A DNA stretch of 64,000 bases from Candidatus Bathyarchaeia archaeon (GTDB lineage Archaea > Thermoproteota > Bathyarchaeia > Bathyarchaeales > Bathycorpusculaceae), in contig JAVZJU010000002.1 of assembly GCA_038870595.1 (NCBI GenBank), forward strand, positions 1 to 64,000. Reading direction: 5' to 3'. Positions 767-41,619 of this stretch are shown here, piece after piece. Below the pieces are notes generated by a model, which did not search any database, was not told the origin of the DNA, and was given only the letters and a program-made list of their open reading frames with translations. Position 1 is the first letter of the stretch; each line of letters begins with the position of its first letter. The position numbers and the translations under genes were made by a program.

Positions 767-825
767 CCTACACCCTATCCTCTTTTTATCGTCGAATTCA
801 ACTCTTTTGCCGTGGCTTAACCCCT

Positions 826-1965
826 TCAGCAGTGCTTTCCTCTTTTCCGCCAGACGGTTATTGTGGCTGTGGGAAGCGTTAACAAAGGCAAAAGCGCCAT
901 AAGTGTTTGGAATTCTGGAACGATTGTTATTTCTACCGTTGAGTGGGGGTAGGTGAAATAGATGATGCTTAATGTTTCATTCTCAAATATCAGCGTGTAC
1001 TCCACTTGAACGTCGTTTACTTTTATGATGAATGGCGGTTGCATAAGGCTATGCGGTATCGTGATTCTGCAGTACCCGTGGGTCTGCCCTATTTGCGATT
1101 CAGAGGCATGTATTACAATTGTTCCGTTGGAGGTGAAGTATTGGAAATAGTCTATTGTTGAGTTGGAAACTATGTCAACATTGAAGCCAAGCGGCGTGCT
1201 GAAGCTTCTGAAAGGCCCCATTAGGGGATAATTGTCAAAGTTTTCCTCTGTGATATAGTATGGCGTGTCGCCTATTCCATCCTCATCAGAGTCCTCGCCT
1301 TCATAATCGCTCCAATAGTTGCCTTCTGATGGATTGCCGCTGCTCCAAAAGTTTGCCGATCCATCGCTTCCAACGTGCTCTTTATTGCCTATGAAATTAT
1401 TATGATAGAAAATGTTATTACAAGAATCTCCAATGTGGATGCCGGTCCAATTGTTGTCTATTATGTTGTTTCCAACTATGCGGTTGTGGTCTGATCCCCA
1501 CCAAATTTCCATGCCGTTCTCAGTGTTGTTTATCAGCGTATTGCCGATTATGGTGCAGTTGACGGCGCCTTCAAGCCAGATTCCATAGTCAAAGCGGGTA
1601 ATGATTAAATTTTTGACAGTTACATTCTCGATTTCCATAAGGTATATTCCAGCTGCCCCGCCGCTTCCTTCTATGGTGTAGCCAGCCCCATCAATTATGA
1701 TATTGGCTCGTTCCACGTCGATGCCGTCGCCGGAGGTTGTTATGTTGCCGGTCAATGTGTAAGTGACGTGGTCGTAGGTTATTATCGGCGCGTCAGATGG
1801 TTCTATAGTTCCATCCGCCCTAATGGTTATGGTTCCGCTCCAGGTCTTGACGGTTTTAACGTTAGCCACTAAGGACAAGCCAAACAGCAAAAGTGCTGTC
1901 AACATTGCGATTAGGGCTAGTCTGCAACTTTTATCCACAAATTTTCCTCGCAAGCTAATGGACAC
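826..1965 (-). CDS. Secreted right-handed parallel beta-helix (NosD/PbH1-repeat) protein with PEF-CTERM-like C-terminal anchor
   Basis: N-terminal hydrophobic signal. Repeated GNxIxxN...G motifs (GNTLINNTENG, VGNNIIDNNWTG, HNNFIGN). C-terminus PEFQTLMALLPLLTLPTATITVW-RKRGKHC = PEF + TM + basic tail. Confidence 0.7.
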   Translation of the reverse strand: MSISLRGKFVDKSCRLALIAMLTALLLFGLSLVANVKTVKTWSGTITIRADGTIEPSDAPIITYDHVTYTLTGNITTSGDGIDVERANIIIDGAGYTIEGSGGAAGIYLMEIENVTVKNLIITRFDYGIWLEGAVNCTIIGNTLINNTENGMEIWWGSDHNRIVGNNIIDNNWTGIHIGDSCNNIFYHNNFIGNKEHVGSDGSANFWSSGNPSEGNYWSDYEGEDSDEDGIGDTPYYITEENFDNYPLMGPFRSFSTPLGFNVDIVSNSTIDYFQYFTSNGTIVIHASESQIGQTHGYCRITIPHSLMQPPFIIKVNDVQVEYTLIFENETLSIIYFTYPHSTVEITIVPEFQTLMALLPLLTLPTATITVWRKRGKHC

Positions 1966-13402: not shown

Positions 13403-15325
13403 ATGCTAGTCAGCGAGGTGATCCTTGAAAACTTCATGAGCTATGAGTATGCTAGGGTGCCCTTTAAACCCGGAGTGAACGTGGTTTGTGGTCCCAATGG
13501 TGCTGGGAAGTCCTCGCTTTTGTTGGCTATTTCTGTGGCTCTTGGGCAGTCTTACACTGAGCGTTCCAGGAAGCTCAGCGACTTGATCCGTTGGGGTAAG
13601 GATCAAGCCCGTGTTACGCTTATACTTGATAATTCTAAGAGGGGCGGGAAACGCCCAGTTCCAAAGTTTAACAAGGACCAGATTTTTTTGACGAGGGTTT
13701 TGAGGCGGGATGGCAAGTACTGGTTTGAGTTGGAGAATAGGGCTGCTTCAAAGCAGGACGTGGAGAGGCTTTTGGCTAGGCTGGGCGTTGACCCGGACAA
13801 CATGCTTATTATTATGCATCAGAACATGGTGGAACAGTTTACAGTGCTTTCCCCCCAAGATAAGCTGAAAATGGTCGAGGCGGCTGTTGGGCTTGAGGCT
13901 TACCGCGAAAACGTTTTGGAAGCCCAGAAAAAGCTCACTCGCATATTAAGCCAAGAAGAGTCCATAAGCAAGCTTTTGGAGTCGGCGGAGCAGACCCTCA
14001 ACTATTGGAGAGAGCAATACGAAAGGTTTCAAGAGAAGAAGCAGTTGATGGCTAAGAGGCACTTCTTGGAGCGAGAACTTGCCTGGGCTGAGGTAAACCG
14101 AAGAGAAGACATGGTTAAAGATTTAGAGGCAAAACTTGAGGAAGAATTATCCCTGTTAAGGCAGATTGAAGGAGAAGCCAAAATCGCCCATGAACAGCTT
14201 CAAACACAGCAGAGCCAGCTTGAAAGGCTTAAGGGCGAATGGAAGAGAAGCCTCAACGAAACCATAGCTCTCGAACGGGAAAAAGCTGGAAGCCAAGCCA
14301 CAGTCTCGCTTTGTGAACAGCTACTGGCAGAGGCAGCCTTCATAGAAAACGAGGCTCAAAGCGGCAAACAGCATTTGAAGCTTTTAAAAACTGAAAGCTT
14401 AAAGGAGCTTATAGAAAGCTCGCGGTTGAAGGTTTCAAAGCTTGATGAGGAGCTGGGCAGAAAACTGTCGGAGACGCGGATTCTTGAGGAGCAGATGGAG
14501 AAGGTTGGAAGCCAGATTCTTGACGCTCGGGTTAGGCTTGCACTTTTAAATTATAGGATGGAAAATTCGAAGGCAAACATTGAGGGTTTGGACAAAGCGC
14601 TTAAAGATGCAAAAGCCCAGCTGGATGTGGCTGTTAAGAGGGCTGAGGAAACTGGACCAAGAATCGCCGTAGTTAAGAGTGTTGGCGAAATCTTAGATGA
14701 AATCCGTGTCATTGATGGGCACTTGGCGGCTTTGGCTGGAGTTTCAGAAGATGTGGAACGCATGTACGAGTCTTACTCACAGCTTTACTTGGAGCTTAAG
14801 GAGAAAGCGCGGCTAGTGGCTGAAAACCGTGAAAAAGCTTTAGAAGAGGTTAAGGCTCGGATGCAAGCTTGGCGAACAGTAATCCAAAACCTTCTAGACC
14901 GTGTAAATTTGGAGTATCAGAAGATTTTGGTGAGTTCTCAGGCTGTTGGCGAGGTTAGGCTTGTGAATGAGCATGACATTGAGGCGGCTGGACTTGAAAT
15001 TCTTGTGGGGTTTAAGGGTGGAAAACCAGTGCCGCTTAATGCTTACACGCAGAGCGGAGGCGAAAGAACAACAGCCACCATGAGCTTCTTGTTGGCTTTG
15101 CAGCAGCATGTGCGCTCGCCCTTCCGCGCAGTGGACGAGTACGATGTGCACATGGACCCGAAGAACCGAGAAATAATAGCTCAAATGCTGATTTCAATGG
15201 TTAAGAATGCGAACGCTCAATATGTGGTGATTACTCCAAGCCAAGTGACTTTCGCGAAGGATAATGTTAACATTATTACTGTTCAGAATGTTGAAGGAAA
15301 GTCGATAATCAAAGAGGTTGCCTAA
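13403..15325 (+). CDS. SMC/Rad50-like ABC ATPase, half-length and hinge-less
   Basis: Walker A GPNGAGKSSLLLA, Q-loop IMHQNMVEQF, about 330 aa of predicted coiled coil, ABC signature QSGGERTTATMSFLLAL, Walker B RAVDEYDVHMD. No hinge or Zn-hook motif. Confidence 0.75.
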   Translation: MLVSEVILENFMSYEYARVPFKPGVNVVCGPNGAGKSSLLLAISVALGQSYTERSRKLSDLIRWGKDQARVTLILDNSKRGGKRPVPKFNKDQIFLTRVLRRDGKYWFELENRAASKQDVERLLARLGVDPDNMLIIMHQNMVEQFTVLSPQDKLKMVEAAVGLEAYRENVLEAQKKLTRILSQEESISKLLESAEQTLNYWREQYERFQEKKQLMAKRHFLERELAWAEVNRREDMVKDLEAKLEEELSLLRQIEGEAKIAHEQLQTQQSQLERLKGEWKRSLNETIALEREKAGSQATVSLCEQLLAEAAFIENEAQSGKQHLKLLKTESLKELIESSRLKVSKLDEELGRKLSETRILEEQMEKVGSQILDARVRLALLNYRMENSKANIEGLDKALKDAKAQLDVAVKRAEETGPRIAVVKSVGEILDEIRVIDGHLAALAGVSEDVERMYESYSQLYLELKEKARLVAENREKALEEVKARMQAWRTVIQNLLDRVNLEYQKILVSSQAVGEVRLVNEHDIEAAGLEILVGFKGGKPVPLNAYTQSGGERTTATMSFLLALQQHVRSPFRAVDEYDVHMDPKNREIIAQMLISMVKNANAQYVVITPSQVTFAKDNVNIITVQNVEGKSIIKEVA

Positions 15326-16155
15326 TGCAGTCAAAGCGGGAACGCGTCAAAATTGGGCGGGAGAGGCTTCAGCGGGTTATTGAGATGTGCCGAGCTGTTG
15401 AGGAGCGCTCCCTAGACCCCTTTCTGGTGGATGTGGACGAGATAATTAGGGTTGTTAGGGAGTTTTTCCCAGAGTGGGAGCAGCCTGAAGACCTATGCCT
15501 AGACGCAGAGGCAATAAACCGCCTCGCATCGGTTGTTAGGCTTCAAAGCGAATGGGTTAGACACCGCTCAACATCCCTTTACACAGACCCCTTTCTCCTA
15601 GAGGAGAAGATAAAACGAATGGAGAAAGAAGCCATTGTAGATGCTTTTGTTGGCTCTTGGCACCCAATAGTGGAGTTTGAACAGATTTCGCTCCACAGCC
15701 TAAAAGAAGCGCTGCGCTATTGGGAAAGTCTCCCGCCACTAAAAGATAGGTGGAAAGAGTTCCCACCACCAGAAGAGGCTGGCGGAGCCGCCACCCGAGA
15801 GGAGCTTATAAGGCTTAGGATTTTGCAGGATAAAGCCTTCACAGAGGAATTGGAAAACTTTTGGAATGAGTTGAAAAGGCTGGTTGGGGAGAAGGGCGAG
15901 AATGGCAGAATCCGATACTGGGATTTTGTTGGTGCTGAAACCTATGAGGAGACAACCCGCAGAGCTTTCATGACAAGTTTTCTTGTAACTTATGGTTATG
16001 CAACCCTTGAGGTTCACCCATTGGAGGAAGAAATCTTCGTTAAGCCTTTTGAGAGGCAACAGAGGCGCATTGCCAAAAAACAGCTGGTTTCGATACCCAT
16101 AGCCATAACTGTTGAGGAGTGGGAAAAGTGGAAGAGGGGAAACCAAAATGAGTAG
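15325..16155 (+). CDS. scpA: ScpA-like kleisin
   Basis: N-terminal SLDPFLVDVDEII...ASVVRLQSEW resembles archaeal ScpA (IDPWxIDIxE...AS.L.R.KSE). C-terminal FMTSFLVTYGYATLEVHPLEEEIFVK resembles the ScpA C-terminal winged helix. Start overlaps the SMC-like stop. Confidence 0.55.
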   Translation: MQSKRERVKIGRERLQRVIEMCRAVEERSLDPFLVDVDEIIRVVREFFPEWEQPEDLCLDAEAINRLASVVRLQSEWVRHRSTSLYTDPFLLEEKIKRMEKEAIVDAFVGSWHPIVEFEQISLHSLKEALRYWESLPPLKDRWKEFPPPEEAGGAATREELIRLRILQDKAFTEELENFWNELKRLVGEKGENGRIRYWDFVGAETYEETTRRAFMTSFLVTYGYATLEVHPLEEEIFVKPFERQQRRIAKKQLVSIPIAITVEEWEKWKRGNQNE

Positions 16156-16705
16156 GAGGAAAGCTGTCTACGCCAGCAAAATGAAACGCGCCGTCCACAT
16201 GCTTTTCTACCGAAGACATAAAAAGCCCGGAGTGAAAGGCTGGGAACTCCGAAAAGCCTTGGGCTCAGACTACCCAAAAGTCCTAAACATTTTGGATGAG
16301 TACTTGAAACCTTTGGACTTGCAGGTTAAAATGGTTTTTGAAGAGGAGAAGCCAGCCGCTGAAAAGCCAACGCTGGAAGAATTGGACAAGGCGAGGTTTT
16401 ACATAACCCTAAGGGGTGATTTAACGCCTAAAGAGGCTAAGATGGTTGGTTGGCGCATAGACGACTTGGCTGGACTAGCCATAACAATAGCCTACATAAT
16501 CTCGAAAAAGGGAAAAGCACCCCGCAAAGAGGTGGAAGAACTTTTACGCGAGAAGCTGCCGGGCTGGAAGGTGGGCTTAAACATAGACCGCTACATACGT
16601 TATGGCTATTTAACCCAAGATGAAAACGAACAGCTGTACCTGGACTGGAGAACAAGAGCGGAAGTAGACCAAAAAGCACTGATAGACTTAATTTTATCCA
16701 AGTAA
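16148..16705 (+). CDS. scpB: ScpB-like winged-helix protein (tentative)
   Basis: About 185 aa with two winged-helix-like segments. Its position after the kleisin is the main argument. The ORF track starts at 16112; the ATG at 16148 is more likely. Confidence 0.35.
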   Translation: MSRRKAVYASKMKRAVHMLFYRRHKKPGVKGWELRKALGSDYPKVLNILDEYLKPLDLQVKMVFEEEKPAAEKPTLEELDKARFYITLRGDLTPKEAKMVGWRIDDLAGLAITIAYIISKKGKAPRKEVEELLREKLPGWKVGLNIDRYIRYGYLTQDENEQLYLDWRTRAEVDQKALIDLILSK

Positions 16706-16849: not shown

Positions 16850-17386
16850 TCAGAAGAGCCAACCACTGCTCTTCCGCCATTTCTTCTTAGGTTTGGTTTT
16901 TGGTTTAGGCATATTATTTATTTCTCGATTAATTTGTTCTATTGTTAGTTCTTTAGCTAGAGCATTGACATATTGACGCTTAGTTGGAGGCGATCTTGTT
17001 TCACCGAACAAGCCCTCAGAAACTCTTCCTTTAACCCTTATCCTGTGCCTTTGTGCAAGATATTTGAGCTCGCTCAAGTTCAATTTTTGCAAAAGTTTCT
17101 TGGCTCTTTTTTCTGGTGTCTCGGGTAAACCAAGCTTTTTCCTAACTTCTTTTAATGAAAGAGTTCTCATCGACTTGTTGCATGTAGGACAAAGTAGGAT
17201 GGCGTTCCTTAAGGTCAATTTTCCTCCTTTCGCGTGGGCTCTGTTGTGACCTATTTCAAAGTTGAAAGGGTCGACTTTTTTCCCACAAATTTGACATATG
17301 CCCCTATCTCTTTCGTAAACCATTTTCTTCAGAATTTTGCTAGGGGTTGGTCTTCTTTCTTCCTCCCAGAACAACACCAATCCCAA
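16850..17386 (-). CDS. HNH endonuclease with Lys-rich C-terminal tail
   Basis: CQICGKK...HNRAHAKGG...LLCPTCN (CxxC...HN...H...CxxCN). The tail is KPKTKPKKKWRK. Likely start at the internal Met MVYERDRG. Confidence 0.65.
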   Translation of the reverse strand: MGLVLFWEEERRPTPSKILKKMVYERDRGICQICGKKVDPFNFEIGHNRAHAKGGKLTLRNAILLCPTCNKSMRTLSLKEVRKKLGLPETPEKRAKKLLQKLNLSELKYLAQRHRIRVKGRVSEGLFGETRSPPTKRQYVNALAKELTIEQINREINNMPKPKTKPKKKWRKSSGWLF

Positions 17387-17770: not shown

Positions 17771-18208
17771 TTAGACTATGCTGACGTTTTGTATCTGGAA
17801 GTAGCGTTTCACCAGCATGCGGAGGCGCTCAGCGTTCCTTCCATTCTTCCCTATGGCTACACCCTTGTCTCTTGGGTGAACTGACACAACGGCTATTGTT
17901 CTGCCGTCTGGTCTCTCGGTTATCCTAACCTCTTGGACGTTGGCTGGTTTCAAAGCGTTTTTAATGAACTGGACTGGGTCTTCAGAGTACTCTATTATCT
18001 CGTGTTTTTTGCCCGTCATTCGCTCCAGAAGCCTAATGTTTCTTCCGCCCTTGCCTATGGCTGCGCCGATGTCGCCTTCTTTTACAACCATGATTACGCG
18101 TCCCTGCTCATCGTCAACTATGCAGTCTTTGACGCTGGCGCCGCTTACACTTTCGAAGAGGGCTATATACTTCATTTCTGTGCTGGTGATTTTTATGCCG
18201 CTACTCAT
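17771..18208 (-). CDS. nusA: Archaeal NusA-like transcription termination factor (two KH domains)
   Basis: GxxGxxI KH motifs (IGKGGRNIRLL, IGKNGRNAERL). Canonical position after rpl30e. Confidence 0.85.
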   Translation of the reverse strand: MSSGIKITSTEMKYIALFESVSGASVKDCIVDDEQGRVIMVVKEGDIGAAIGKGGRNIRLLERMTGKKHEIIEYSEDPVQFIKNALKPANVQEVRITERPDGRTIAVVSVHPRDKGVAIGKNGRNAERLRMLVKRYFQIQNVSIV

Positions 18209-18543
18209 TCGCTTCCTCCTTCGGACTCCTCTGCTTCCTCCATAGGCTCTACTAACTTAAGAATTTCTGAATCGCCGGGCTCTCTTATAGTTAACGCTGA
18301 AACAAGGAAGGGTTTTCCACAAACAGCAGCCAAATCCGTCGAAGAACCCCTATAAACAATTAATGGAACATTGGAAAGCTTGCAGTAATACTCCAAGTCG
18401 CTGCGAATCTTAGCTGGACAATTAGAAGCCACAATAATCATCTTCGCCTTTCCAGTTTTAGCGCTTTGAATCGCGAAATTAGAGCCAAAAGAAACCTTGC
18501 CGGTTTTCACAGCTGTTGAAATAGCCTTGTCAATGTCTATCAT
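18205..18543 (-). CDS. rpl30e: Ribosomal protein L30e
   Basis: 112 aa with VKTGKVSFGSN...AKMIIVASNCP...YYCKLSNVPLIVYRGSS; between rpoA and nusA as in archaea. Confidence 0.85.
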   Translation of the reverse strand: MIDIDKAISTAVKTGKVSFGSNFAIQSAKTGKAKMIIVASNCPAKIRSDLEYYCKLSNVPLIVYRGSSTDLAAVCGKPFLVSALTIREPGDSEILKLVEPMEEAEESEGGSE

Positions 18544-21500
18544 TTGCTCTCTCTCCTAAGATCAGAAGTGGACATAAACAACTCCACAAGCCCGGTGCCG
18601 ACAGGTATGGACTGCCCAACAATAACGTTTTCAGTTACGCCTTCCAGCGGGTCGCTTTCCCCTCTTATGGCAGCCTCAACAATGTTTGGAACAGTAATCT
18701 CGAAGGCAGCCCTCGCCAATACACTTGCCTTTTTGCCGCTGACACCGTGCCTGCCGATTTGCTGCACCTCGCCCGTCGCAGTCATCATATCAGCCACGAG
18801 CATAACGTGGCGGATGTCAACGTCCAATCCTTGCTCCTCTAAAACGCTCTTAGCCTCCTGGATTAAGACGTTTCTGGCAGCCTCGATGCCCAAGGTTTTG
18901 GCTATTTCATGAACGTTATTGGTCGTCGTCCTAGTGGTGTCAACTCCGTAAACTTCTAAAACTTTGGGAAGGTTTGAGCCGTCGGTGCGTATAACCCATT
19001 CGCCATGCTCCTCTGTCACAAGGACACGTTTTATGCCCGGTACACCCTTAATGTAAAATGATGAGACCTTGTCGAGAAGCCTTTTTAGGGCTTCTGGCTT
19101 TTTAGGCTTAACGTGGATGCGGTTTCCAGCCATCTTCACCGTGCAGTTGGCAATCTTCACCTTCTCCTTAAGCTCCTGTATTGTGACGCCCCTATCCTCC
19201 ATCATAGCCTTATTCAATTCAACGATAATTTCTCCGCGCACAGGGTCTTGGTATATGGCCTGGGCAATGTTTTCGACAGTGGTGTGAAGTATGTTTCTGG
19301 CTATTTTTACAGCCGTTTCTCTACTTTTACGGTGCTTCTCATCTAGGTAAATTACCATTATAGGTGTTGATGGAATCCTCCTCGCGTCAACAATTTCTAT
19401 GAGTCGAGGCAAACCTAAGGTAACGTTTTGCTCTCTAACACCAGCATAATGGAACGTTCTAAGGGTCATCTGCGTGCCCGGCTCACCTATGGACTGGGCG
19501 GAAACTATTCCCACGGCTTCACCCGGCTCCATTAAAGCACGTTTGTAGTGCTCAACGGTTAGCTCTATGGCTTTGTCAATGCCTTCCTTGCTGAGTTTCG
19601 CCTCTGTTAAGCTCTGCTTTAGCTCGCTTATCAGCAAGGGTGTGAGCTGGTCTTCAACAGCTTTAAGCTTTTCCTTAATGTATTCTGGAGACGCTGGCTT
19701 GCCCTTCTCCATGCCAATTCTTATTTGTTCAACGAGGCGGCTGACGTTCACAGCCTTTCCATGGTCGCTTTTAGCCGGGTCAACGCCGTCTTCGCCATAC
19801 TTGAACTGGATTATGTCGCCGGTCGAGCTTCTAACAGTGCCGTCATATTCTAGGCGTAGATGTTCCAAAGCGTTAATTAGGCGTCTCTGCATGTAACCGC
19901 TCTGTTGTGTTCGGACAGCTGTGTCCACAAGCCCTTCACGTCCACCCATGGCGTGGAAGAAGAATTCTATGGCATCTAAACCCTTCTGGTATGAGGAGTA
20001 AACGAAACCCCTCGCCTTTGGAGACGGGTCGCCGAACTTGAAGTGGGGCAGTGTTCTCCCCAAATAGCCGCGCATTATACGTTTTCCACGAACAGCTTGT
20101 TGCCCAACACAAGCACTCATCTGCCCAATATTGAGGCTTGACCCTCTGGCGCCGGTCCTCGTCATGACTATGCCAGAATTGTCAAGGGTGAAGTCCTCGT
20201 CGGCGATTTTTCCAGATTCGTCTCTGGCTTTAGCCAGTTCATTCATAACATAGATTTCAAATGAGTCTTCAAGGGTTTGTCCAGGAAGCCTCGGCAGTGT
20301 GCCGTCGCGGTAACTCTTGATAAGCTCCTCAATCTTCTTTTCAACCCTCTCCATTACCTTCTTTATTTTTGTTTCAGCTTGAGGAGAAAGAACCAGCTCG
20401 TCGTAGGAGTAGGAGAAGCCCCGCATTGTTATGAAAAGCTTCAAAAGCCTCGTAATCTTGTTTATAAATCCGCGTCCAGCAGCCGTCCCATAATCCTTAA
20501 TTATTCTGTGAAGGAGGCTTTCAGACTGCTCAGCACCTACAGCCTTTCTGTCAATCACACCGCATATTAGTTGACCGTTCTTGACAACCACGTAGGCGTC
20601 GTAGGGGCACTCCTCCTTTAGGCATTTGACACATCCACGGCAGGTGTTTGCCTTCAAAACATAGTTCAAATCCTCTGGCAAGAATAGGCTGAAAATTTGT
20701 TTGCCGCTCCACATGGGCTGAGGTTCTTTGATTTGGGGTTTTGGAAGCGGACCATTATAGCCAGCAGCGATTAAGAGTCGGCTTACTTCATCTCTTGTTA
20801 GGTAGTTTGATTTTCTTGTGAAAAGATATGCAGCCGTTATAAAGTCTCTTATAGCCCCAATTATTGGACCGCCGAAGCGTGGAGAAAGAATTTGGTCTTG
20901 AACTTGCATTAGGAGAAGCGCCTCTGTTTGGGCTTCCTCGCTTTGCGGTATGTGAAGGTTCATCTCGTCCCCGTCGAAATCTGCGTTATATGGTGGACAG
21001 ACGCATAAGTGCAGGCGGAAAGTCTTGTAAGGCAAGACTCGCACGTAATGCGCCATAATAGACATTCTGTGGAGGGATGGTTGACGGTTAAAAATGGCTA
21101 TATCACCATTTCTTAGGTGGCGTTCAACAATGTAGCCCGGCTCTAAAGATTCAGCAATCTTCTCCCGGTCAGTGACAAATTCAAGTCTTATCCTTTTGCC
21201 GTCTGGACGGATAATGTAAAGGGCTCCGGGATATTTAGAGGGGCCGTTTATGACAAGTTTTCGCATTTCCTCAATGTTCCACGAGGTCACCTTTTCCGGA
21301 ACTGAAAGCCTCATGGCAACCTCCAACGGAACACCAACCTCGTTAATGTCGAGGTTTGGGTCTGGAGAAATCACTGTACGCGCTGAGAAGTCAACACGTT
21401 TCCCGGAGAGGTTGCTTCTGAACCTTCCCTCTTTGCCCTTAAGCCTCTGGGAAAGCGTTTTAAGAGCCCTTCCAGAGCGGTGCCGTGCCGGCGGAATACC

Positions 21501-22361
21501 CGAAGCCTCATTGTTAAAGTACGTTGTCACATGGTATTGGAGAAGCTCCGATAAGTCTTGAATTATAAGGGTTGGGGCACCAGCCTCCATGTTCTCTTTT
21601 AAGCGCTGGTTTATGCGAATTATGTCCACAAGCTTGTGGGTTAAGTCGTCCTCGGAACGTATGCCAGACTCCAAAGTTATTGAGGGACGCACATATACTG
21701 GTGGGACTGGTAAGACTTGGAGAACCATCCATTCCGGACGGGCTGTTTTGGAATCGAAACCCAAAAGTTCCAAATCGTCGTTCGGTATGCGTTCAAGTCT
21801 TTCTCTAACCATACTGGGCGTTAGAGGCTGAGAACCGCTTTCAGGAATTTCCTCGCTGAACTTTGTGGGCTTTTCAAAGGTTATTTTATATTGGGGAGAG
21901 TTGCAGTGAGGGCAAGTTTTAGCCCTTATTTCTTGGGTAATTCGCTTAAATATTTCATCTGGAACAGTTCCCAACAGCTGGCGGGTTCTATCGATTCTTG
22001 TCCTCAACTTTTTAACGGCGTCTTCTGGAAGTAGAATTCGCCCACAGTTTCTGCATGTAACCCTAAGAAGGTCGTATATTATTTTTGCAAATTCTATGTG
22101 GATTATTGGGACGGCTAGCTCTATATGTCCGAAATGTCCAGGACAGCGTATAGCCGTGTTGCCACACGTCTTGCATCGCTGTCTCGGTTCAAGAGTGCCA
22201 AGCCTTCCATCCATAAGCCCAGCGGTTATTGGAGCGCCATCCTCATCGTAGGTGTCCGGCGTTTGAATTTCAACCACTGAAAGTTTACGTATTTCCTGAG
22301 GTGAGAATAAGCCGAAACGGATTTCGTCAACAACTTTATGGGCGACTTCCTCAACCGCCAT
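18540..22361 (-). CDS. rpoA: DNA-directed RNA polymerase subunit A, fused A'+A'' (single 1273-aa ORF)
   Basis: The N-terminus has the Zn-binding CxxC...CPGHFGH clamp and the NADFDGDEMN active site. The C-terminus has the trigger loop GEPGTQMTLRTFHYAGV and an A''-type end IPVGTGLVELF. One uninterrupted frame. Confidence 0.85.
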   Translation of the reverse strand: MAVEEVAHKVVDEIRFGLFSPQEIRKLSVVEIQTPDTYDEDGAPITAGLMDGRLGTLEPRQRCKTCGNTAIRCPGHFGHIELAVPIIHIEFAKIIYDLLRVTCRNCGRILLPEDAVKKLRTRIDRTRQLLGTVPDEIFKRITQEIRAKTCPHCNSPQYKITFEKPTKFSEEIPESGSQPLTPSMVRERLERIPNDDLELLGFDSKTARPEWMVLQVLPVPPVYVRPSITLESGIRSEDDLTHKLVDIIRINQRLKENMEAGAPTLIIQDLSELLQYHVTTYFNNEASGIPPARHRSGRALKTLSQRLKGKEGRFRSNLSGKRVDFSARTVISPDPNLDINEVGVPLEVAMRLSVPEKVTSWNIEEMRKLVINGPSKYPGALYIIRPDGKRIRLEFVTDREKIAESLEPGYIVERHLRNGDIAIFNRQPSLHRMSIMAHYVRVLPYKTFRLHLCVCPPYNADFDGDEMNLHIPQSEEAQTEALLLMQVQDQILSPRFGGPIIGAIRDFITAAYLFTRKSNYLTRDEVSRLLIAAGYNGPLPKPQIKEPQPMWSGKQIFSLFLPEDLNYVLKANTCRGCVKCLKEECPYDAYVVVKNGQLICGVIDRKAVGAEQSESLLHRIIKDYGTAAGRGFINKITRLLKLFITMRGFSYSYDELVLSPQAETKIKKVMERVEKKIEELIKSYRDGTLPRLPGQTLEDSFEIYVMNELAKARDESGKIADEDFTLDNSGIVMTRTGARGSSLNIGQMSACVGQQAVRGKRIMRGYLGRTLPHFKFGDPSPKARGFVYSSYQKGLDAIEFFFHAMGGREGLVDTAVRTQQSGYMQRRLINALEHLRLEYDGTVRSSTGDIIQFKYGEDGVDPAKSDHGKAVNVSRLVEQIRIGMEKGKPASPEYIKEKLKAVEDQLTPLLISELKQSLTEAKLSKEGIDKAIELTVEHYKRALMEPGEAVGIVSAQSIGEPGTQMTLRTFHYAGVREQNVTLGLPRLIEIVDARRIPSTPIMVIYLDEKHRKSRETAVKIARNILHTTVENIAQAIYQDPVRGEIIVELNKAMMEDRGVTIQELKEKVKIANCTVKMAGNRIHVKPKKPEALKRLLDKVSSFYIKGVPGIKRVLVTEEHGEWVIRTDGSNLPKVLEVYGVDTTRTTTNNVHEIAKTLGIEAARNVLIQEAKSVLEEQGLDVDIRHVMLVADMMTATGEVQQIGRHGVSGKKASVLARAAFEITVPNIVEAAIRGESDPLEGVTENVIVGQSIPVGTGLVELFMSTSDLRRESK

Positions 22362-22362
22362 G

Positions 22363-25300
22363 TTAGGCCCTCTCCTTAAGCTTTAATTTTGGCGCTACAC
22401 AAAGGCTCATCAGTTCTTGTAGAAGAAGCTTAAAGGCATAGGAGACTATTACAGGCGAGATTTTAGCCTTGTCTTCGCATATTCTGCAAACATATTTCCT
22501 CTGTTTTAGGTCGTAGTAGGCTATGTAGCCGCAGTTCTCACAAATGTAAAGAGTATACTTATCCGACTCCTCCAAAAGCCTGTCACGTAGGAGCATGGCA
22601 GCTCCATGTCCGATAAGGCAGTCCCTCTCCATTTCGCCGAAGCGCAGTCCACCTCCGCGGGCTCTTCCTTCCGTCGGCTGCCTCGTTAACATTTGCACTT
22701 GTCCTCTGGCCCTTGCGTGGATTTTGTCTGCAACCATGTGGTGGAGCTTCTGATAGTAGACTATGCCCACGAAAACATCTGCCACAAACTTTTCACCCGT
22801 CACGCCGTTGTAGAAGACCTCTTCCCCACTGTGGCTGAAACCAAGCTTTATTAGGGCTTTTCTCAAGTCCTCTGCCTTCTCGTTTGAGAAGGGTGTTCCA
22901 TCAACCGGCTTGCCCCTCATGGCTGCAACTTTGCCAGCTATAGACTCTATAAACTGTCCAATAGTCATTCTCGACGGGATGGCGTGGGGATTAATTATAA
23001 TGTCTGGAACTGTACCGTCCTCCGTGAAGGGCATATCCTCTTGTGGCACAATAAGCCCTATAACGCCTTTCTGTCCGTGGCGGGATGCAAACTTGTCGCC
23101 AAGCTCTGGGATTCTCTGGTCTCTAACCCTAACCTTCACGAGTTTACTTCCCTCGCCAGACTCTGTTATGAAGACGGCGTCTACGATTCCTGTTTCTGAT
23201 GGGCGCATGTCCACGGAGGTGTCCCGCATTGAAGGCCCCTTAACCTCAAACTCCTTATATTCTTCTAGGAATCTTGGCGGGCTTGTTCTTCCTATCAGAA
23301 CGTCTCCACCGGTAACTTGGGCTTCTAGGCTTATTATGCCGTCTGGCTCCAAAAGCCTATAATATTGTTCGCCTCTGAAACCCCTTGTTCCCGGTTCTGG
23401 TATGACAAATTTGTCTTTAAGTCCGCCCATATATTGGCGGCATTCAGCTTCATATATGCGGTAGAATGTGGATCGCCCCAAGCCCCTTTCAATTGAGGCT
23501 TTGTTGAAGATTAGGGCGTCCTCCATGTTGTAGCCTTCATAGGATAGAACCGCCACTATACAGTTCTGCCCTGATGGGCGAAGCTTATAGCCCATAACTT
23601 CCATTAGAGTTGTTTCAACCAGCGGCGTCTGTGGATAATGCAGTATATGCGACCTTGAATCAACACGTAATGGGAAGTTTGTGGCGAAGATTCCGAGCGC
23701 CTGCTTTGCCATAGCTGCTTGATAAGAGTTGCGGGGTGACTGATTGTGCTCCGCATAGGGTATTGTTGAGGCGCAAATTCCGAGAATTGTGTGGGTTGAA
23801 ATTTCCAGGTGGGTGTGTTCTGGGGTTATTTCTTCAGCGCTTATGGCGACGTAGGCGTTTTCCTCCTCCTCAGCATCCAAATATTCAATTATGCCATCTT
23901 TAACAAGGTCTTCAAAGGACAACCCGCCATGGTTAATCTTTTCTATATGCTCTGGCTGAAGCCTCGGGGTGCCATTTTCAACTATTATTAGTGGTCTTCT
24001 AACCCTTCCCTCGTCGCAGTTAACGTATATTTCCTCTCTTTCACCATACTCCTTAGGGAAGTAAGCGATGTTAACTTCTGTTGAGATTTCTCCCATGCGC
24101 CGGCGTTGCCTAAACTCTTGAACCACCTTTTCTGGAGTGGCACAATAGCCAACAATTGTTCCATCCACGAAGACTTTTGCACCGTAACGCTTGAGCGTTT
24201 CATTTGCCTCGTAGACCGGCGTGACGCCCATGCTAAACAGTATTTGCTTAATCTTTTCGGGGTTTACTCCGACGGATATGGAGGCTGATAAGGCAAGGTT
24301 CTTAACCAAGCCGCAGTTTGAGCCTTCCGGCGTCTCATTCGGGCATAGGCGCCCCCAATGGGTTGAGTGCAAGTCTCTAGCTTCAAAGTTTGGCTGGCTT
24401 CTGCTGAGCGGCGACTGAAGCCTTCTCAAATGGCTTAGGGTGGAAAGGTAATTTGTCCTATCGAGAAGCTGGGTTACACCAACGCGTCCTCTTCCCCAGT
24501 TTCCCGTGGCAAGTGCGTGCTGAAGCCTTTCGGTTATTATGCCTGGGCGCACGGCAGCCGAAACAGTAATTATTGGTCCTTTGACACCTATCCTTTCAAG
24601 CTGGTATTTTATATCTCTTATAAGGTTTCGGAAGGCTACGCGGAACAAGTCTGCCAGCAGTGGTCCAGCAAGCCTCAAACGCTTGTTTTTGAAGTGGTCT
24701 TTGTCGTCTGGTTTCCGCCTTCCAAGCTTTAGCTCGATGACTCTGCACGCCATCTCGCCCAAGAATATGGCTTTTTCACGGCGGCTCTGGTTTGTCCTTC
24801 CAAGGTGAGGTAAGAAGTTCTTATCTATGGCTGCTTCAGCCTTCTGAATACGGTATTCCTCAACTTGCCCGTGGGCTACGCGATTTCCAATAAATAATAT
24901 TGCGTCTCTAACGGTGTCGACGCCCAAAGCCTTCTCGAAGGATGGCTCCAGCTCACTTTGGATTTCCTCGTCAACCGAGACGGCTTCGGCAATCTCTTTG
25001 TCAGACTCAAGTCCCAAGGCTCGCATAACAATGACGAAGGGGACTTCTGTTGGCACTCCTGGCATCGTGACGTATAGGGCGCCATCAGACTTCATCTTCA
25101 GCTCTATTCTTGCTCTAAAGCCAACGGTTGTGGAGAAGAGTTTGGCTTGGTAGACAGGAGTTGCGCCCTTTTCGTCTATGTCAACGATTATGCGGTTTGG
25201 AGCTAAATCCTCCATAGCCACTATGACACGTTCAGAACCATTAACAATGAAGTAGCCGCCTGGGTCGTCTGGGTCTTCGCCAACGGCTATTAGTTCTTCG

Positions 25301-25728
25301 CGGGAAAGCTGCGACAAGAAGCAAAGTTTAGACTTAAGCATTACGGGAATGTTGCCGATAAAAACGAGTTCCGTGTCCTGCTCTCTGCCGTCTACAACCG
25401 GCGTCATTTCAAGGGCTATTGGCGCCGCGTAGGTGAGGTTTCGAACCCTAGCCTCTATTGGGTAAATTTCATGTTTTGTGCCGTCAACCTCAGTCACATA
25501 CGGACCGCTTATCCTCGTCTGGGGGTCGATTATCCAGATTTGTCCGAGCTTAACAGTGTAGGGGCATTCCGGAACCTCTATTGGGATTTCTCCAACCTCG
25601 TCTATAACCTCTTGCAAGCCATGATCTATAAACTCATTGTAGGAGTCCAGGTGCTGGCGAACCAGCCCCTTCTCTTTGAAGAAAGCCTTTAACAGCGTAT
25701 TCACATCTTCTTTTGAACATTTAACCAT
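22363..25728 (-). CDS. rpoB: DNA-directed RNA polymerase subunit B (unsplit)
   Basis: 1121 aa with GEMERDCLIGHGAA and a C-terminal CxxCG Zn motif. Stops 1 nt before the rpoA start. Confidence 0.9.
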   Translation of the reverse strand: MVKCSKEDVNTLLKAFFKEKGLVRQHLDSYNEFIDHGLQEVIDEVGEIPIEVPECPYTVKLGQIWIIDPQTRISGPYVTEVDGTKHEIYPIEARVRNLTYAAPIALEMTPVVDGREQDTELVFIGNIPVMLKSKLCFLSQLSREELIAVGEDPDDPGGYFIVNGSERVIVAMEDLAPNRIIVDIDEKGATPVYQAKLFSTTVGFRARIELKMKSDGALYVTMPGVPTEVPFVIVMRALGLESDKEIAEAVSVDEEIQSELEPSFEKALGVDTVRDAILFIGNRVAHGQVEEYRIQKAEAAIDKNFLPHLGRTNQSRREKAIFLGEMACRVIELKLGRRKPDDKDHFKNKRLRLAGPLLADLFRVAFRNLIRDIKYQLERIGVKGPIITVSAAVRPGIITERLQHALATGNWGRGRVGVTQLLDRTNYLSTLSHLRRLQSPLSRSQPNFEARDLHSTHWGRLCPNETPEGSNCGLVKNLALSASISVGVNPEKIKQILFSMGVTPVYEANETLKRYGAKVFVDGTIVGYCATPEKVVQEFRQRRRMGEISTEVNIAYFPKEYGEREEIYVNCDEGRVRRPLIIVENGTPRLQPEHIEKINHGGLSFEDLVKDGIIEYLDAEEEENAYVAISAEEITPEHTHLEISTHTILGICASTIPYAEHNQSPRNSYQAAMAKQALGIFATNFPLRVDSRSHILHYPQTPLVETTLMEVMGYKLRPSGQNCIVAVLSYEGYNMEDALIFNKASIERGLGRSTFYRIYEAECRQYMGGLKDKFVIPEPGTRGFRGEQYYRLLEPDGIISLEAQVTGGDVLIGRTSPPRFLEEYKEFEVKGPSMRDTSVDMRPSETGIVDAVFITESGEGSKLVKVRVRDQRIPELGDKFASRHGQKGVIGLIVPQEDMPFTEDGTVPDIIINPHAIPSRMTIGQFIESIAGKVAAMRGKPVDGTPFSNEKAEDLRKALIKLGFSHSGEEVFYNGVTGEKFVADVFVGIVYYQKLHHMVADKIHARARGQVQMLTRQPTEGRARGGGLRFGEMERDCLIGHGAAMLLRDRLLEESDKYTLYICENCGYIAYYDLKQRKYVCRICEDKAKISPVIVSYAFKLLLQELMSLCVAPKLKLKERA

Positions 25729-25752
25729 TATGAATCAACCCCGCAATTTCCA

Positions 25753-25762
25753 CTTTAAATCG
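25753..25762 (-). promoter_or_regulatory. TATA-like element upstream of rpoB
   Basis: ctttaaatcg on the plus strand (gatttaaag on the coding strand), about 25-30 nt upstream of the rpoB ATG. Confidence 0.3.
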
Positions 25763-26053
25763 ACGATGGAGGGATGAACGTGGTGCGGGTTTCCTCAAAC
25801 TTTTAATTTCCTCCGCTTTTGGGTCATCCAGTTTTAAAAAGTCTCCAATAGATTGAAGCTAAACACGTAAAACTGCACAGCTCACTAATAAACTTTTTTG
25901 TGGAAAAATCCATGTCCTCAGCCCCACAAAGCCAAGAAAACCAACATTTATTGGGCTTTTCCAAATTCAATAGAAGCCCGCTCCTCTAGTTTTCCGGTTT
26001 AGAAAATGCAGACGGTAAGCTTAAATCTCATCATTCCATTCTTTGAAAAATGG

Positions 26054-26174
26054 GCGGCGGTAGCCAAGCTAGGTCAAAGGCGGAGGACTCAAGATCGGCA
26101 TTTAAAAAGGCTAAACCCTATGAGTCATCCTCTCCCGTAGGGGTTCGCCGGTTCAAATCCGGCCCGCCGCACCA
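26054..26174 (+). tRNA. tRNA-Leu(CAA), class II with long variable arm, 33-nt intron after position 37, encoded CCA
   Basis: Acceptor GCGGCGG/CCGCCGC. Anticodon stem GAGGA/TCCTC with loop CTCAAGA split by the intron 26095..26127. Variable arm CCCGTAGGG. T-arm GCCGG-TTCAAAT-CCGGC. Discriminator A then CCA. Confidence 0.8.
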
Positions 26175-26322: not shown

Positions 26323-27387
26323 GTGACAATTAGCAAGAAGGGCGAAGTTAAATTAGATGCGCCTCTTATTCATTCTGATGCTCAGCTTTGCCACGTAGAT
26401 AGCCTTTCAATGACTTTAAGGTACATAGGGGATAGATATGAACCTTGGTATATTGGCGGGACATCGAGGCGTTTCTTCGGATTCGGATATTATCCAAGCA
26501 AAGAATACGTCCAAATTCGAACGGGTACTTTTCCTTTAAAAGCCCTATTAACCTTCCTTAAAGAACATGGTTACTCGTTTCAATTCCTTCAGGGAAAATC
26601 ATGGAATGACGCTTTTCCTATTCTGAAAAAATTTCTATTGAATGGTTTGCCTGTTTTAGTGATAAGTCACATGGGCTGGCTTTCATATAACAAAGAATAT
26701 GAGATATTTAGAAAGTTAGGTGGTGTTGTAGACCATTACGTTGTAATCACAGGTTTAAGGGATGATGAGGTGGTCTACGTGAATGACCCTAATCCAGATT
26801 TCTTCAGAAAGGATGCAGAATTAGCCATACAAGACTTCAGGATTGGATGGGCTGAAAAGATACCAGAAATATATCAGTCTTGCCCGATGCTTGTTGTAAG
26901 TAGGAGAAAACACAAACCAGAGTTAAAGAAAATTCTAGCAAAATCGCTGCAGCGCGCGTTAAAACAGATGCACACAAAGAGAGGTGCAACGGGAATCGCG
27001 GGCTTAAAGAAGGCAAGCAAAGAAATACCCGAACTTCTTCGAGAAGATGCGCTTTCAATTAGGAATTCACTTGAAGAATTTGCCTATTTCAGGTTTAGGG
27101 TGATAGCAACCGAAGCCAAATATGCCAGCAAATTCTTGGATTATGCAGCTAAAGAGCTCAATATTCCCGAGCTGAAAATTTCTGCAAAAAAGTTGCTAAT
27201 CGCATCAGACTGTTTTAAAGGGCTAAGAAACCTTTTTATAAATTGCGTGCAGGGTCAAAGAAAATTAACCGATATTGCAGATGATACAGAAATATTATTG
27301 GTCAAAGCTTACGAAGCAGAAAGGGACTGTTTTCTCAATTTAGCATCATTAAAGTATGCCCTATTTCGCCACAACGAATATGAGTAA
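26323..27387 (+). CDS. BtrH-N/DUF4872-like protein (papain-like fold, tentative)
   Basis: Architecture and size match proteins with BtrH_N plus a C-terminal helical domain. Candidate Cys in AQLCHVDS. Confidence 0.35.
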   Translation: MTISKKGEVKLDAPLIHSDAQLCHVDSLSMTLRYIGDRYEPWYIGGTSRRFFGFGYYPSKEYVQIRTGTFPLKALLTFLKEHGYSFQFLQGKSWNDAFPILKKFLLNGLPVLVISHMGWLSYNKEYEIFRKLGGVVDHYVVITGLRDDEVVYVNDPNPDFFRKDAELAIQDFRIGWAEKIPEIYQSCPMLVVSRRKHKPELKKILAKSLQRALKQMHTKRGATGIAGLKKASKEIPELLREDALSIRNSLEEFAYFRFRVIATEAKYASKFLDYAAKELNIPELKISAKKLLIASDCFKGLRNLFINCVQGQRKLTDIADDTEILLVKAYEAERDCFLNLASLKYALFRHNEYE

Positions 27388-36413: not shown

Positions 36414-39400
36414 TTATTTTCTCTTGCGTTTTGTTAGGCTTAAAAGCGAGGCGAATAGTGCCATCAGCATTGTGTACGCCATTGCTGGTGTTATTGGAGT
36501 GTTTTTAGTTAGGGCTATTGAGTATCCTCCAACTGGGACGGATGAGACTGTTACTCGGGCGGGGTCTGATTGGGCTGGGTTGCCCGCAGCATCCGTAACC
36601 TTCAGCATTACGTAATATGTGCCGGTTGCTGTCGGCGTAAAGACAAAGCTGCTGGATGTCGCTCCTGGGACTGGATTGTTGTTTACGAACCATTGGTATG
36701 TGTAGGGTGGTGTTCCGCCGCTAGCGGTGGATGTGAAGGTTACTTGTTGCCCCACCAGTATTGAGACGCTCATGGGGCTTATCGAAACTGTTGGCGGTGT
36801 TGGCGCCGTCTTAAAGAAGGCTTTTAATACGTAGTTGTTGTTCATTGTGACCGTGTAAGTTGTGGCTGTGCCCACATTTGTGCCATTAAGCTCCCAATGG
36901 TCAAAAATATAGCCGCTGTTTGGAATTGCCGTGACTTGAACCAGCGAGCCAGCAGAATAAGTGTATGTGCCCGGAGCCGGATTCGTTGTGCCGCCCGTTG
37001 TTGTCTCGATTTTCAGCGTGTAGGTTGGCACCACTGCAGTGTAGTGGGCGGTGGCGGTATGGGGTGCATTCATAACCACTGTTATTGGGTTTACCCCGCT
37101 TCCCTGCGATGCGCCGTCGACATCCCAGTATTGGAACGTGTAACCCGCCACAGTTGGCGCGGTGAGCTGAACGCTCTGCGCGGAATCATACCAGCCCTCT
37201 CCCGGAATCGTCGCAATGCCTGGCGGGTCGGTGCGCACAGTCAAATAGTATTGGACTTGGTAGGAGGCGCTTACAGTGAAGGGTGCATTCACGGTTTGTG
37301 GCGATGGCGGATTAACGCCTATTAGGATGTAGCGTACTCCTAGAACCGCCCCTGGAACAATGTCTTGGTAGGCGTATGTGATTTGGGAGCCCGCAAGAAC
37401 CCAGACTGTGAAGGGCACTGTTTCTGTTGGGTCTGTGTCAGCCGTGTAGGTGACTGTTGGAGCCACGCCAGAACCCGTCTGCGTGAAAGTTACAGCATAC
37501 TGGGTCTTCCAGTTTGCCACAGCCGTTTTTGGACCATCCATAATTATTGGGTTGCTTTGGGCGTAGTTTGTTCCGGAGGCGTCGCCGCCCCAGCTTACAA
37601 AAACTCTGCGGGTTCCGTTCCCATGGTCAACCAAGCCTGTATTCAGTGTTGCGTAGGCTGTTGCTCCGCTTGGATACCAGCCTTCTCCGCCCACTGTGCC
37701 GAAGGGGGAGGTAACCGTCAAATAATATTCTAGGGTGTAGTGGGCGGTGGCTGTGTGATTAGCGTCCATAACCACTGTTATCGGGTTGCCATTCTTTGGC
37801 GTTCCGTCAATATCCCAATAGCTAAACTTGTAACGCACACCAAGCGAAACTGGGACAGAATCTGGAGCTGTAAGCTCTACTCCTGTGCCTTCGTTATACC
37901 AGCCTTCACCTGGAATTGTCGTTACGCCAGCGGGGTCTGTCTTAACTGTTAGGTAGTATCTGCGTAAAACAACCGTGACTGTTTTCGTTTCTGTGTCCCA
38001 TCTGCCCTCACTATCTGTAACGTTTAGCGTTACGATGTAGTCGCCTGCTGATTCATAAACATGAGTTGTTATCGGATCACTTTCTTCAACTATTGGCGTA
38101 CCATCACCAAAATCCCAAGCATAGGTGACTATCGTTCCGCCGTCGGGTGTGGATGCTGAAGCATCAAAAGTAACCGTTTCGCCTCTCTGGGGATAGTAGG
38201 GAGTCCACCAGAAATCTGCAATGGGAGCCTTCTCAACAGTTATCTTCTTTGACGCGGTGTCCCATTTTCCTTCGCTGTCAGTAACGTTTAATGTAACTGT
38301 GAAAGTGCCATAAGTTGAATACGCATGGGTTATTACTGGACTGCTTGTTGTTGTGACGTTACCATCACCAAAATCCCAAGTATAACTGACTATTACTCCT
38401 CCATCTGGTGAGGAGGCAGAGGCATCAAAAGTAACAAGCTCATGGACAAGCGGGTCTGGCGGCGAAAAAGTGAACGCGGCAACTGGATGTTGGCTAACAT
38501 GGATTGTGGCGGTTTCATCATCCGTCAAGCCATCGTTATCCGTGACTGTTAGCTTAACAGAATAGTCTCCATAAGATGTGTACTTGTGGGTTATTATCGG
38601 GTTAGATGTTGTAGTAATGTTGCCATCACCAAAATCCCACTTATAGCTTACAATATAGCCGTCTGGGTCATAGCTTCCAGAAGCATCAAAAGTAACAAGC
38701 TCATTAACCTCCGGATAAGTTGGAGCATACGTGAACGCTGCGAAGGGTGGCTGAGGTGGCGGAGGCCCTGCTTGAAAGAAAACTGTGGAGTCGGCTGAAA
38801 GCGGGTTGTGAACTATCTGACCATCCCAGGTCACGCTTCCAGAAGTCGACTTTCCATAAGCGTCAAAATGCATTCTCACACCAGTAGGATCGGAAAAAGC
38901 CACAGAAACAACCAATGTTTTATAGCCTTTTTTAGGAATCAAACCCACATTAATGACGGTGTCGTTAAAATAGGTTGGGTAAACATCGCCACTAGGCCAA
39001 GTCCAAAGCTTATAGGGTTTAGGCGTACCCCAATGAAAAGCGGATTTAGGCACGCTCGTGCCATTAACAACCAAAGAAACAAGCTTACCATAACCAGCAT
39101 CGTTAAGTGCAATAACCAAACGAGTATCATAAGACCTCAAAGAACTACTCGTATTATTAATTCGGACAAGAAAAGTTTGAGAAGCCCCGGTCAAATTCAA
39201 AAACCAACACTCAGAAAGCCAAGGATCCGTGTTATAACCTAGATAAGTACCTTCAGGCAAAGAAACCTTAAGAATAGCACAGGGCGTCGCACTAACAGGA
39301 TGAACAAAAACCGTGCAAACCACCAGAAAATCCAGTAAAAACATTAATAGTAACAAATGCTTAAACTTTGAATGCAGATGCCCTCTCCCCTTCGGCAAAA

Positions 39401-39473
39401 AATAATTACGCCTCAAACACATATAAGCCTTACTAGAATTATCTTCTAGCGTGCAACCCCAAACAGAGCGCAA
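36414..39473 (-). CDS. Large secreted surface protein with three PKD domains, Ig-like domains and a C-terminal TM anchor + KRKRK tail
   Basis: WDFGDG...T/V.D PKD motifs x3, an Ig-like GGTPPYTYQWF domain, and the C-terminus AMAYTMLMALFASLLSLTKRKRK. Confidence 0.75.
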   Translation of the reverse strand: MRSVWGCTLEDNSSKAYMCLRRNYFLPKGRGHLHSKFKHLLLLMFLLDFLVVCTVFVHPVSATPCAILKVSLPEGTYLGYNTDPWLSECWFLNLTGASQTFLVRINNTSSSLRSYDTRLVIALNDAGYGKLVSLVVNGTSVPKSAFHWGTPKPYKLWTWPSGDVYPTYFNDTVINVGLIPKKGYKTLVVSVAFSDPTGVRMHFDAYGKSTSGSVTWDGQIVHNPLSADSTVFFQAGPPPPQPPFAAFTYAPTYPEVNELVTFDASGSYDPDGYIVSYKWDFGDGNITTTSNPIITHKYTSYGDYSVKLTVTDNDGLTDDETATIHVSQHPVAAFTFSPPDPLVHELVTFDASASSPDGGVIVSYTWDFGDGNVTTTSSPVITHAYSTYGTFTVTLNVTDSEGKWDTASKKITVEKAPIADFWWTPYYPQRGETVTFDASASTPDGGTIVTYAWDFGDGTPIVEESDPITTHVYESAGDYIVTLNVTDSEGRWDTETKTVTVVLRRYYLTVKTDPAGVTTIPGEGWYNEGTGVELTAPDSVPVSLGVRYKFSYWDIDGTPKNGNPITVVMDANHTATAHYTLEYYLTVTSPFGTVGGEGWYPSGATAYATLNTGLVDHGNGTRRVFVSWGGDASGTNYAQSNPIIMDGPKTAVANWKTQYAVTFTQTGSGVAPTVTYTADTDPTETVPFTVWVLAGSQITYAYQDIVPGAVLGVRYILIGVNPPSPQTVNAPFTVSASYQVQYYLTVRTDPPGIATIPGEGWYDSAQSVQLTAPTVAGYTFQYWDVDGASQGSGVNPITVVMNAPHTATAHYTAVVPTYTLKIETTTGGTTNPAPGTYTYSAGSLVQVTAIPNSGYIFDHWELNGTNVGTATTYTVTMNNNYVLKAFFKTAPTPPTVSISPMSVSILVGQQVTFTSTASGGTPPYTYQWFVNNNPVPGATSSSFVFTPTATGTYYVMLKVTDAAGNPAQSDPARVTVSSVPVGGYSIALTKNTPITPAMAYTMLMALFASLLSLTKRKRK

Positions 39474-39552
39474 CTTTGAAAATTAAAGAGAATTTTCGAG
39501 CTTCGGAATCTAGTTTATAAGACACTATTTTCAATTTTAACGTTAGAGTCTG

Positions 39553-40833: not shown

Positions 40834-40841
40834 AATTTCAC

Positions 40842-41342
40842 CTACTTTTGCCAGACATCTTTGGGAATGTGAAGAGTTATTGTTGCGCTTTCTGTTTCCT
40901 TGCAGCCAATTGTTAAAACATCGTCTAGCACAATTTCGCCATTATCGTTAATTGGAACTATATAATTTTCGAAATAGAGGGTAGATAGATCATTGCACCA
41001 TGACTCTCCTTTATTGAGGTGGGGATGAGGGCTCACATACTCTTCATGGGGCGACTGATTATTCTGCATTATTATCGAGGTGGCTTCGCCTCCTATGGCT
41101 GTTATGTTCAGGTATACACGTTTAACAATAATCGACTTGTTCGTGCCTGGATTCGGCTCCCAATCTACTTTCCACACTTTTATGTCGAAGTAATCTTTAG
41201 CTGATGGTCTTGGCTGTTGTGACTGTCTTACGGCTGATAAAACCGTCAATGTAATGAATATTAATGCTAAAGCGACAAGTAAATGTTTTAATTTTAACTT
41301 GAACTTCTTCCTTTCTTTACGCAACTCTCTAAGCCCTTCCAA
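40842..41342 (-). CDS. N-terminally anchored hypothetical extracellular protein
   Basis: Lys-rich N-terminus plus TM; no motif recognised. Confidence 0.35.
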   Translation of the reverse strand: MEGLRELRKERKKFKLKLKHLLVALALIFITLTVLSAVRQSQQPRPSAKDYFDIKVWKVDWEPNPGTNKSIIVKRVYLNITAIGGEATSIIMQNNQSPHEEYVSPHPHLNKGESWCNDLSTLYFENYIVPINDNGEIVLDDVLTIGCKETESATITLHIPKDVWQK

Positions 41343-41370
41343 TTTTAAAAAAGGAAAACAAAGATAAAAA

Positions 41371-41577
41371 TTAAGCGGTTAAGCCCCCGAGGTAGTAGAA
41401 TAGTATTCCACCTAAAAGGAGTGTTAAGGCAACGGATATTATCACGAGGGCGTCTTTTCTCTCAATGTTTCCGCCTAATTTCTTCACGCTAATATAAAGT
41501 GCGAGGAAAAAGTTCACCACAACGATTCCGCATAAAGTTAAAATCATTCCAGTTATTTGTAGTAACGGGTTTGCCAA
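41371..41577 (-). CDS. Small two-TM membrane protein
   Basis: 68 aa with two hydrophobic helices. Confidence 0.3.
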   Translation of the reverse strand: MANPLLQITGMILTLCGIVVVNFFLALYISVKKLGGNIERKDALVIISVALTLLLGGILFYYLGGLTA

Positions 41578-41619
41578 AGCTAAACAGCCTTCAATAGGAT
41601 ATAAAAAGATAGGGAAATT

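Follow-up and report, generated by a model that had tools for sequence, protein, structure and literature searches.

The state of the largest catalytic subunit of RNA polymerase, RpoA, as a single chain or, in most archaea, as separate A' and A'' chains, has been tabulated for archaea since at least 2010-2011. Table 1 of Nunoura et al. 2011 (PMC3082918) gives "fusion" for both RpoA and RpoB in Caldiarchaeum, Thaumarchaeota, and Korarchaeota, and "split" for RpoA in Crenarchaeota and Euryarchaeota. Da Cunha et al. 2017 (PMC5484517) refer to "fused Thaumarchaea and Bathyarchaea sequences", and in Asgard surveys the split versus fused state of RpoA is a standard table column (PMC6478937). Two other publications, PMC7203096 and bioRxiv 2025.11.11.687807, yielded no information on this character. 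Here we analyzed the rpoA gene in a stretch of 64,000 nucleotides (nt) from a Candidatus Bathyarchaeia archaeon (assembly GCA_038870595.1, contig JAVZJU010000002.1, positions 1 to 64,000), hereafter called the window. The unsplit state is already known and published for Bathyarchaeia and their sister group, and the gene in the window is an ordinary member. Unsplit rpoA is a class-level character common to Bathyarchaeia and Nitrososphaeria (Thaumarchaeota/Aigarchaeota), to which Korarchaeota are added by the literature.

The ORF (open reading frame) listing and the translation show that 18540..22361 (minus strand) is a single uninterrupted frame of 1273 amino acids (aa) that begins with ATG. 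An earlier reading of the window (the original prediction) had described a single frame that contains both the A' active site and the A'' trigger-loop/C-terminal region, and its coordinates, length, and motifs were all correct. The gene and its parts are as follows.

18540..22361, minus strand: rpoA (rpo1), unsplit, 1273 aa plus stop (ORF, translation, Pfam Rpb1 domains 1-5)
19722..22361, minus strand: part equivalent to A' (Rpo1N), residues 1-880 (alignment to Sulfolobus A' and to Thermococcus/Pyrococcus Rpo1N)
20958..20987, minus strand: Mg2+-binding catalytic motif NADFDGDEMN, residues 459-468 (translation, coordinates)
19863..19964, minus strand: bridge-helix block FFFHAMGGREGLVDTAVRTQQSGYMQRRLINALE, residues 800-833 (aligns to yeast Rpb1 812-878)
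19689..19721, minus strand: junction linker RIGMEKGKPAS, residues 881-891 (alignment, DNA of split junctions, pN/pS)
18543..19688, minus strand: part equivalent to A'' (Rpo1C), residues 892-1273 (alignment to Sulfolobus A'')
19437..19499, minus strand: trigger-loop motif AQSIGEPGTQMTLRTFHYAGV, residues 955-975 (aligns to the Rpb1 ~1029-1107 block)

All five RNA_pol_Rpb1 domains of Pfam (PF04997, PF00623, PF04983, PF05000, and PF04998) were found in the single rpoA frame, with E values from 6e-97 to 2e-30 and scores of 105-325 bits versus gathering thresholds of 25-40. Domain 5 (residues 794-1213) bridges the site at which the gene is split in other archaea. The block at residues 800-833 we take to be the bridge helix, following the established Rpb1 nomenclature. 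With five Rpb1 domains, the Mg2+ motif, the bridge helix, and the trigger loop present, the rpoA product is the largest subunit of RNA polymerase.

The junction between the two parts could be located, at residues ~881-891, by alignment with split A'/A'' chains of solved structures. Residues 3-875 of Sulfolobus A' (880 aa) correspond to residues 8-880 of the window protein, and residues 8/10-387/390 of Sulfolobus A'' (392-395 aa) to residues 892/893-1263; Rpo1N and Rpo1C of Thermococcus and Pyrococcus map likewise. In split relatives, the stop codon and the initiator Met of A'' align to residues ~884-888 (19698-19712), i.e. within the variable linker of the fused proteins. The remaining two frames near the junction are stop-rich, and therefore no alternative frame is concealed there. 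A hidden frameshift, which had been considered as a candidate, is ruled out by the same dense stops.

To place the gene among its relatives, one genome per GTDB species was scanned; 598 loci were confirmed, and the 80 best among them were retained, divided into stop-to-stop ORFs, and matched to the window protein. Two of these, L076 and L080, stop short of the junction and are outside the counts of fused and split loci. Among the best 80 of 598, the top matches are all metagenome-assembled genomes (MAGs) of Bathyarchaeia, at 63-90% identity. The closest is L030 (JAWBOH010000023), the nearest GTDB species representative, with 90%. They are followed by genomes of the Nitrososphaeria/Thaumarchaeota and Aigarchaeota type at 54-60% identity. 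The frame is uninterrupted in 35 of the 35 junction-spanning loci labelled Bathyarchaeia, in three of three Bathyarchaeia-like loci with other bin labels (L027, L028, and L072), and in 34/34 Nitrososphaeria/Aigarchaeota-like loci, i.e. in 72 of 72 loci of these two kinds that cover the junction (38 and 34, respectively). Across the sampled Bathyarchaeia and Nitrososphaeria, the length of the linker is constant to within 1 residue. The original prediction had offered a lineage marker as one of two options, and this option is borne out by both sets of loci (38/38 and 34/34) as well as by the literature.

The three loci with other bin labels are assigned to a Methylomirabilota bacterium (L027), a Methanocella sp. 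(L028), and an Aquificota bacterium (L072). They carry unsplit rpoA of the Bathyarchaeia type, 63-80% identical to the window, and L027 clusters with Bathyarchaeia in a neighbor-joining tree. Binning contamination of these MAGs is the likely explanation.

Six loci are split, with genes of 880-902 aa and 382-403 aa that are broken at the aligned junction position. Their junctions lie at the following positions of the respective loci.

L060, 6300-6370: split junction, labelled Hadarchaeota
L062, 8590-8660: split junction, labelled Hadarchaeota
L067, 8600-8670: split junction, labelled Hadarchaeota
L069, 7005-7080: split junction, labelled Hodarchaeota
L073, 3340-3410: split junction, labelled Methanosarcinales
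L077, 8605-8675: split junction, labelled Methanosarcinales

At all six, the ATG of A'' is in frame with the stop of A', at a distance of 0-12 nt, and a purine-rich run resembling a Shine-Dalgarno (SD) motif (GGAGG/GGTG) lies within the 3' end of A', ahead of the A'' start. The split junctions and the fused linkers differ in length by zero to few residues; G887 and K888 of the window protein stand opposite the stop and the Met of L073 and L077, with no length difference. In the neighbor-joining tree (30 sequences, 1239 columns), fused and split sequences are separated by one bipartition with 100/100 bootstraps, and the window sequence stands beside L030 inside a Bathyarchaeia clade that also has 100/100 bootstraps. 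The tree is unrooted and represents a locus sample without Thermoprotei and Korarchaeia.

Selection on the linker was estimated from the proportions of nonsynonymous and synonymous differences per site (pN and pS). For codons 876-895, the pooled pN/pS of the window versus nine relatives is 0.22, compared with 0.13 for the whole gene; the synonymous sites of these codons are near saturation, with pS of 0.5-1.1. The linkers of 34 Bathyarchaeia sequences contain only two indels, both of whole codons, and the P-A-S motif is kept. The low ratio and the restriction to whole-codon indels show that the junction is translated and under purifying selection.

Taken together, we consider it very probable that this is a vertically inherited, ordinary Bathyarchaeia rpoA that encodes the largest catalytic RNA polymerase subunit as one chain of ~1273 residues. 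The N-terminal ~880 residues would form one half of the cleft, with the clamp, the Mg2+ active site, and the bridge helix, and the C-terminal ~380 residues the other half, with the trigger loop and the jaw. A translated linker of 11 residues would covalently join the two where Crenarchaeota, Euryarchaeota, and most Asgard archaea stop and restart. The gene is tightly coupled to the unsplit rpoB upstream and to L30e-nusA downstream, with which it presumably shares a transcript. Homology and coding constraint suggest that a single polypeptide of ~140 kDa is made and works like A'+A'', and the sequence holds no sign to the contrary. Three points weigh against this reading: the sample holds no loci of Thermoprotei or Korarchaeia, so that the wider distribution is taken from the literature; all relatives are MAGs; and the single polypeptide is predicted from the gene sequence.

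Among the alternatives, the one that fares best accepts the long frame as real and proposes that Met884 also serves as an internal start for a separate A''-like product. In the alignment, the ATG of codon 884 (19710-19712) and the point where A'' begins in split relatives are indeed no more than 2-4 residues apart. However, position 884 is A/S/K/E/V/Q in most Bathyarchaeia, so that Met884 is not conserved, and no clear purine run of the SD type precedes it in AGAATTGGC, in contrast to the GGAGG/GGTG of the split loci. Internal initiation is very improbable. Met884 was rejected on the same two grounds both as an internal start and as a relic of an A'' start.

Still less probable, and barely worth entertaining, is an assembly or sequencing error, in which A' and A'' are truly separate and a stop codon was lost by a miscalled base. 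One miscall could imitate a fusion, given that the genes of split relatives are in frame and 0-12 nt apart. Against this stand the uninterrupted frame in 72 independent assemblies of related genomes, the purifying selection on the linker with conserved residues such as P-A-S, a junction that lacks an SD-like motif plus a conserved ATG, and the unsplit frame published for the lineage (PMC5484517). An error masking a stop/start junction near codon ~880, which the original prediction had named as what would refute it, is excluded by the independent assemblies and the linker selection. A recent fusion confined to this genome or genus, after a mutation in the stop codon between the genes, would be mechanistically easy because the split genes are in frame, but it has next to no probability, since every Bathyarchaeia locus sampled, to as little as 63% identity, has the fusion, as do Nitrososphaeria (55-60%), the linker length varies by no more than 1 residue, a single fused/split bipartition has 100/100 bootstraps, and the nearest relatives (L030, L001, and others) are unsplit.

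The ordinary, inherited unsplit rpoA of the window can also be set beside the geometry of the split loci. A single stop-to-sense change in the latter would yield a fused protein with essentially the linker length of the window protein. With both genes in the same frame and a spacing of 0-12 nt, one or two point mutations could interconvert the states, in either direction. The split/fused state of RpoA may thus be a toggle of one or two mutations, a tentative idea that we hold to be possible but somewhat doubtful. The underlying observation comes from only three independent lineages and is no more than suggestive; it says nothing on polarity. If the geometry were general in split archaea, the split would have arisen by a nonsense mutation plus a coupled restart, or the fusion by the loss of a stop. 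In that case, the character could be more prone to homoplasy than has been assumed in rooting arguments for Archaea.

The surroundings of rpoA were compared with the archaeal RNA polymerase operon, in which the following neighbors were identified.

22363..25728, minus strand: rpoB (rpo2), a single gene not divided into B' and B'', 1121 aa (Rpb2 domains 1-7; junction DNA)
18205..18543, minus strand: gene of ribosomal protein L30e (ATGA overlap with the rpoA stop)
17771..18208, minus strand: gene of archaeal NusA, with KH domains (ATGA overlap with the L30e stop)

The archaeal context rpoB-rpoA-rpl30e-nusA is present, with a gap of 1 nt between the rpoB stop and the rpoA ATG, and this order is kept in the closest relatives together with the next three genes. 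In many archaea, rpoH is located upstream of rpoB, and the canonical cluster is rpoH-B-A-L30e-nusA-S12-S7. No ORF of at least 60 aa that could represent rpoH was found upstream of rpoB in 25729-26050, the interval to which this search was confined, and no S12/S7 genes follow nusA. Compared with the canonical cluster, that of the window is shorter on either side.

Several further genes of the window were noted. Between nusA and the conserved downstream genes, an HNH endonuclease gene (PF01844, 178 aa) is found at 16850-17386 on the minus strand. It has no tblastn counterpart in the retained flanks of the 80 related loci, and L030 has a gap of just ~280 nt at its position. The gene may be a mobile-element insertion adjoining the RNA polymerase operon. 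On the other side, between a tRNA gene and nadA, a protein of 354 aa with weak matches to peptidase C39-like and BtrH_N families is encoded at 26323-27387 (plus strand). It has no tblastn match in the 80 loci. NadA is upstream of rpoB in three relatives only (L001, L003, and L004), whose interval is devoid of the 354-aa gene, and this gene may likewise be an insertion. The tRNA gene (26054-26171, plus strand; Rfam, 45 bits) has a long variable arm and, in the anticodon loop, an insertion of ~33 nt (intron). With ARAGORN, no tRNA was detected across the 64-kb window, a result that does not affect the reading of rpoA. At 13403-16705 (plus strand), two overlapping ORFs without Pfam match, of 276 and 197 aa, come after an SMC/RecF-like ATPase of 640 aa, and this trio is kept beside the RNA polymerase operon in the closest Bathyarchaeia. 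Lastly, 36414-54506 holds a series of large predicted surface or secreted proteins with PKD repeats, a PQQ-like beta-propeller, cohesin plus dockerin, and NosD-like domains; two ORFs within it, 41620-43671 and 50881-52839 (650-680 aa), have no Pfam match.

Whether RpoA is split or unsplit has served as a rare genomic change in debates on where Archaea are rooted, on how Thaumarchaeota, Aigarchaeota, Bathyarchaeota, and Korarchaeota are related, and on "eukaryotic signature" tables for Asgard archaea. The window represents one more Bathyarchaeia genome in the expected state, and none of these arguments is altered. A practical use is that of a taxonomic flag: a genome in which both rpoA and rpoB are unsplit is probably one of Bathyarchaeia, Nitrososphaeria, or Korarchaeia. 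The flag also aids in recognizing mis-binned contigs, as with the three loci with other bin labels described above.

Compared with known systems, the bacterial beta' subunit (RpoC) is unsplit at the junction position of the window protein and shares a homologous core (E values of ~1e-77 to 1e-86), but it is far more distant and has lineage-specific insertions. In cyanobacteria, beta' is divided as well, but elsewhere in the chain (Da Cunha et al. 2017, PMC5484517).

Eukaryotic Rpb1, RPA1, and RPC1 are single chains like the window protein. Similarity is strong (E values of ~1e-270 to 1e-294) and extends over the blocks of the clamp, active site, bridge helix, and trigger loop. They are longer, 1390-1970 aa versus 1273 aa. 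Rpb1 of Pol II has a C-terminal heptad-repeat domain, whereas the window protein ends without repeats at residue 1273 (...LFMSTSDLRRESK). The interval from the bridge helix (Rpb1 812-878, window 799-865) to the trigger loop (Rpb1 ~1029-1107, window ~915-993) comprises ~150 residues in Rpb1 (879-1028) and ~50 in the window protein (866-914). Both hallmarks of the Rpb1-type architecture, the heptad C-terminal domain and the enlarged foot domain, are therefore lacking. Of the resemblance to the eukaryotic arrangement that the original prediction had seen, only the continuity of the chain stands.

The split A' + A'' of Sulfolobales and Thermococcales (PDB 2PMZ, 2WAQ, 4QIW, and 8CRO) are collinear with the window protein over its full length and have the same catalytic motifs. 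Split loci, including those of Hadarchaeota, Hodarchaeota, and Methanosarcinales, have the same operon position. They differ at the junction, where they have a stop and a restart, with an SD-like motif in the 3' end of A', and the window has the sense codons 884-888. The unsplit ("A-type") RpoA of Bathyarchaeota, Thaumarchaeota/Nitrososphaeria, Aigarchaeota (Caldiarchaeum), and Korarchaeota resemble the window protein in size (~1250-1330 aa) and have an identical junction position, a linker length within a residue or two, a similar G-K/x-P/K-A-S/T motif, and an unsplit rpoB as well. From these, the window protein shows no difference of substance.

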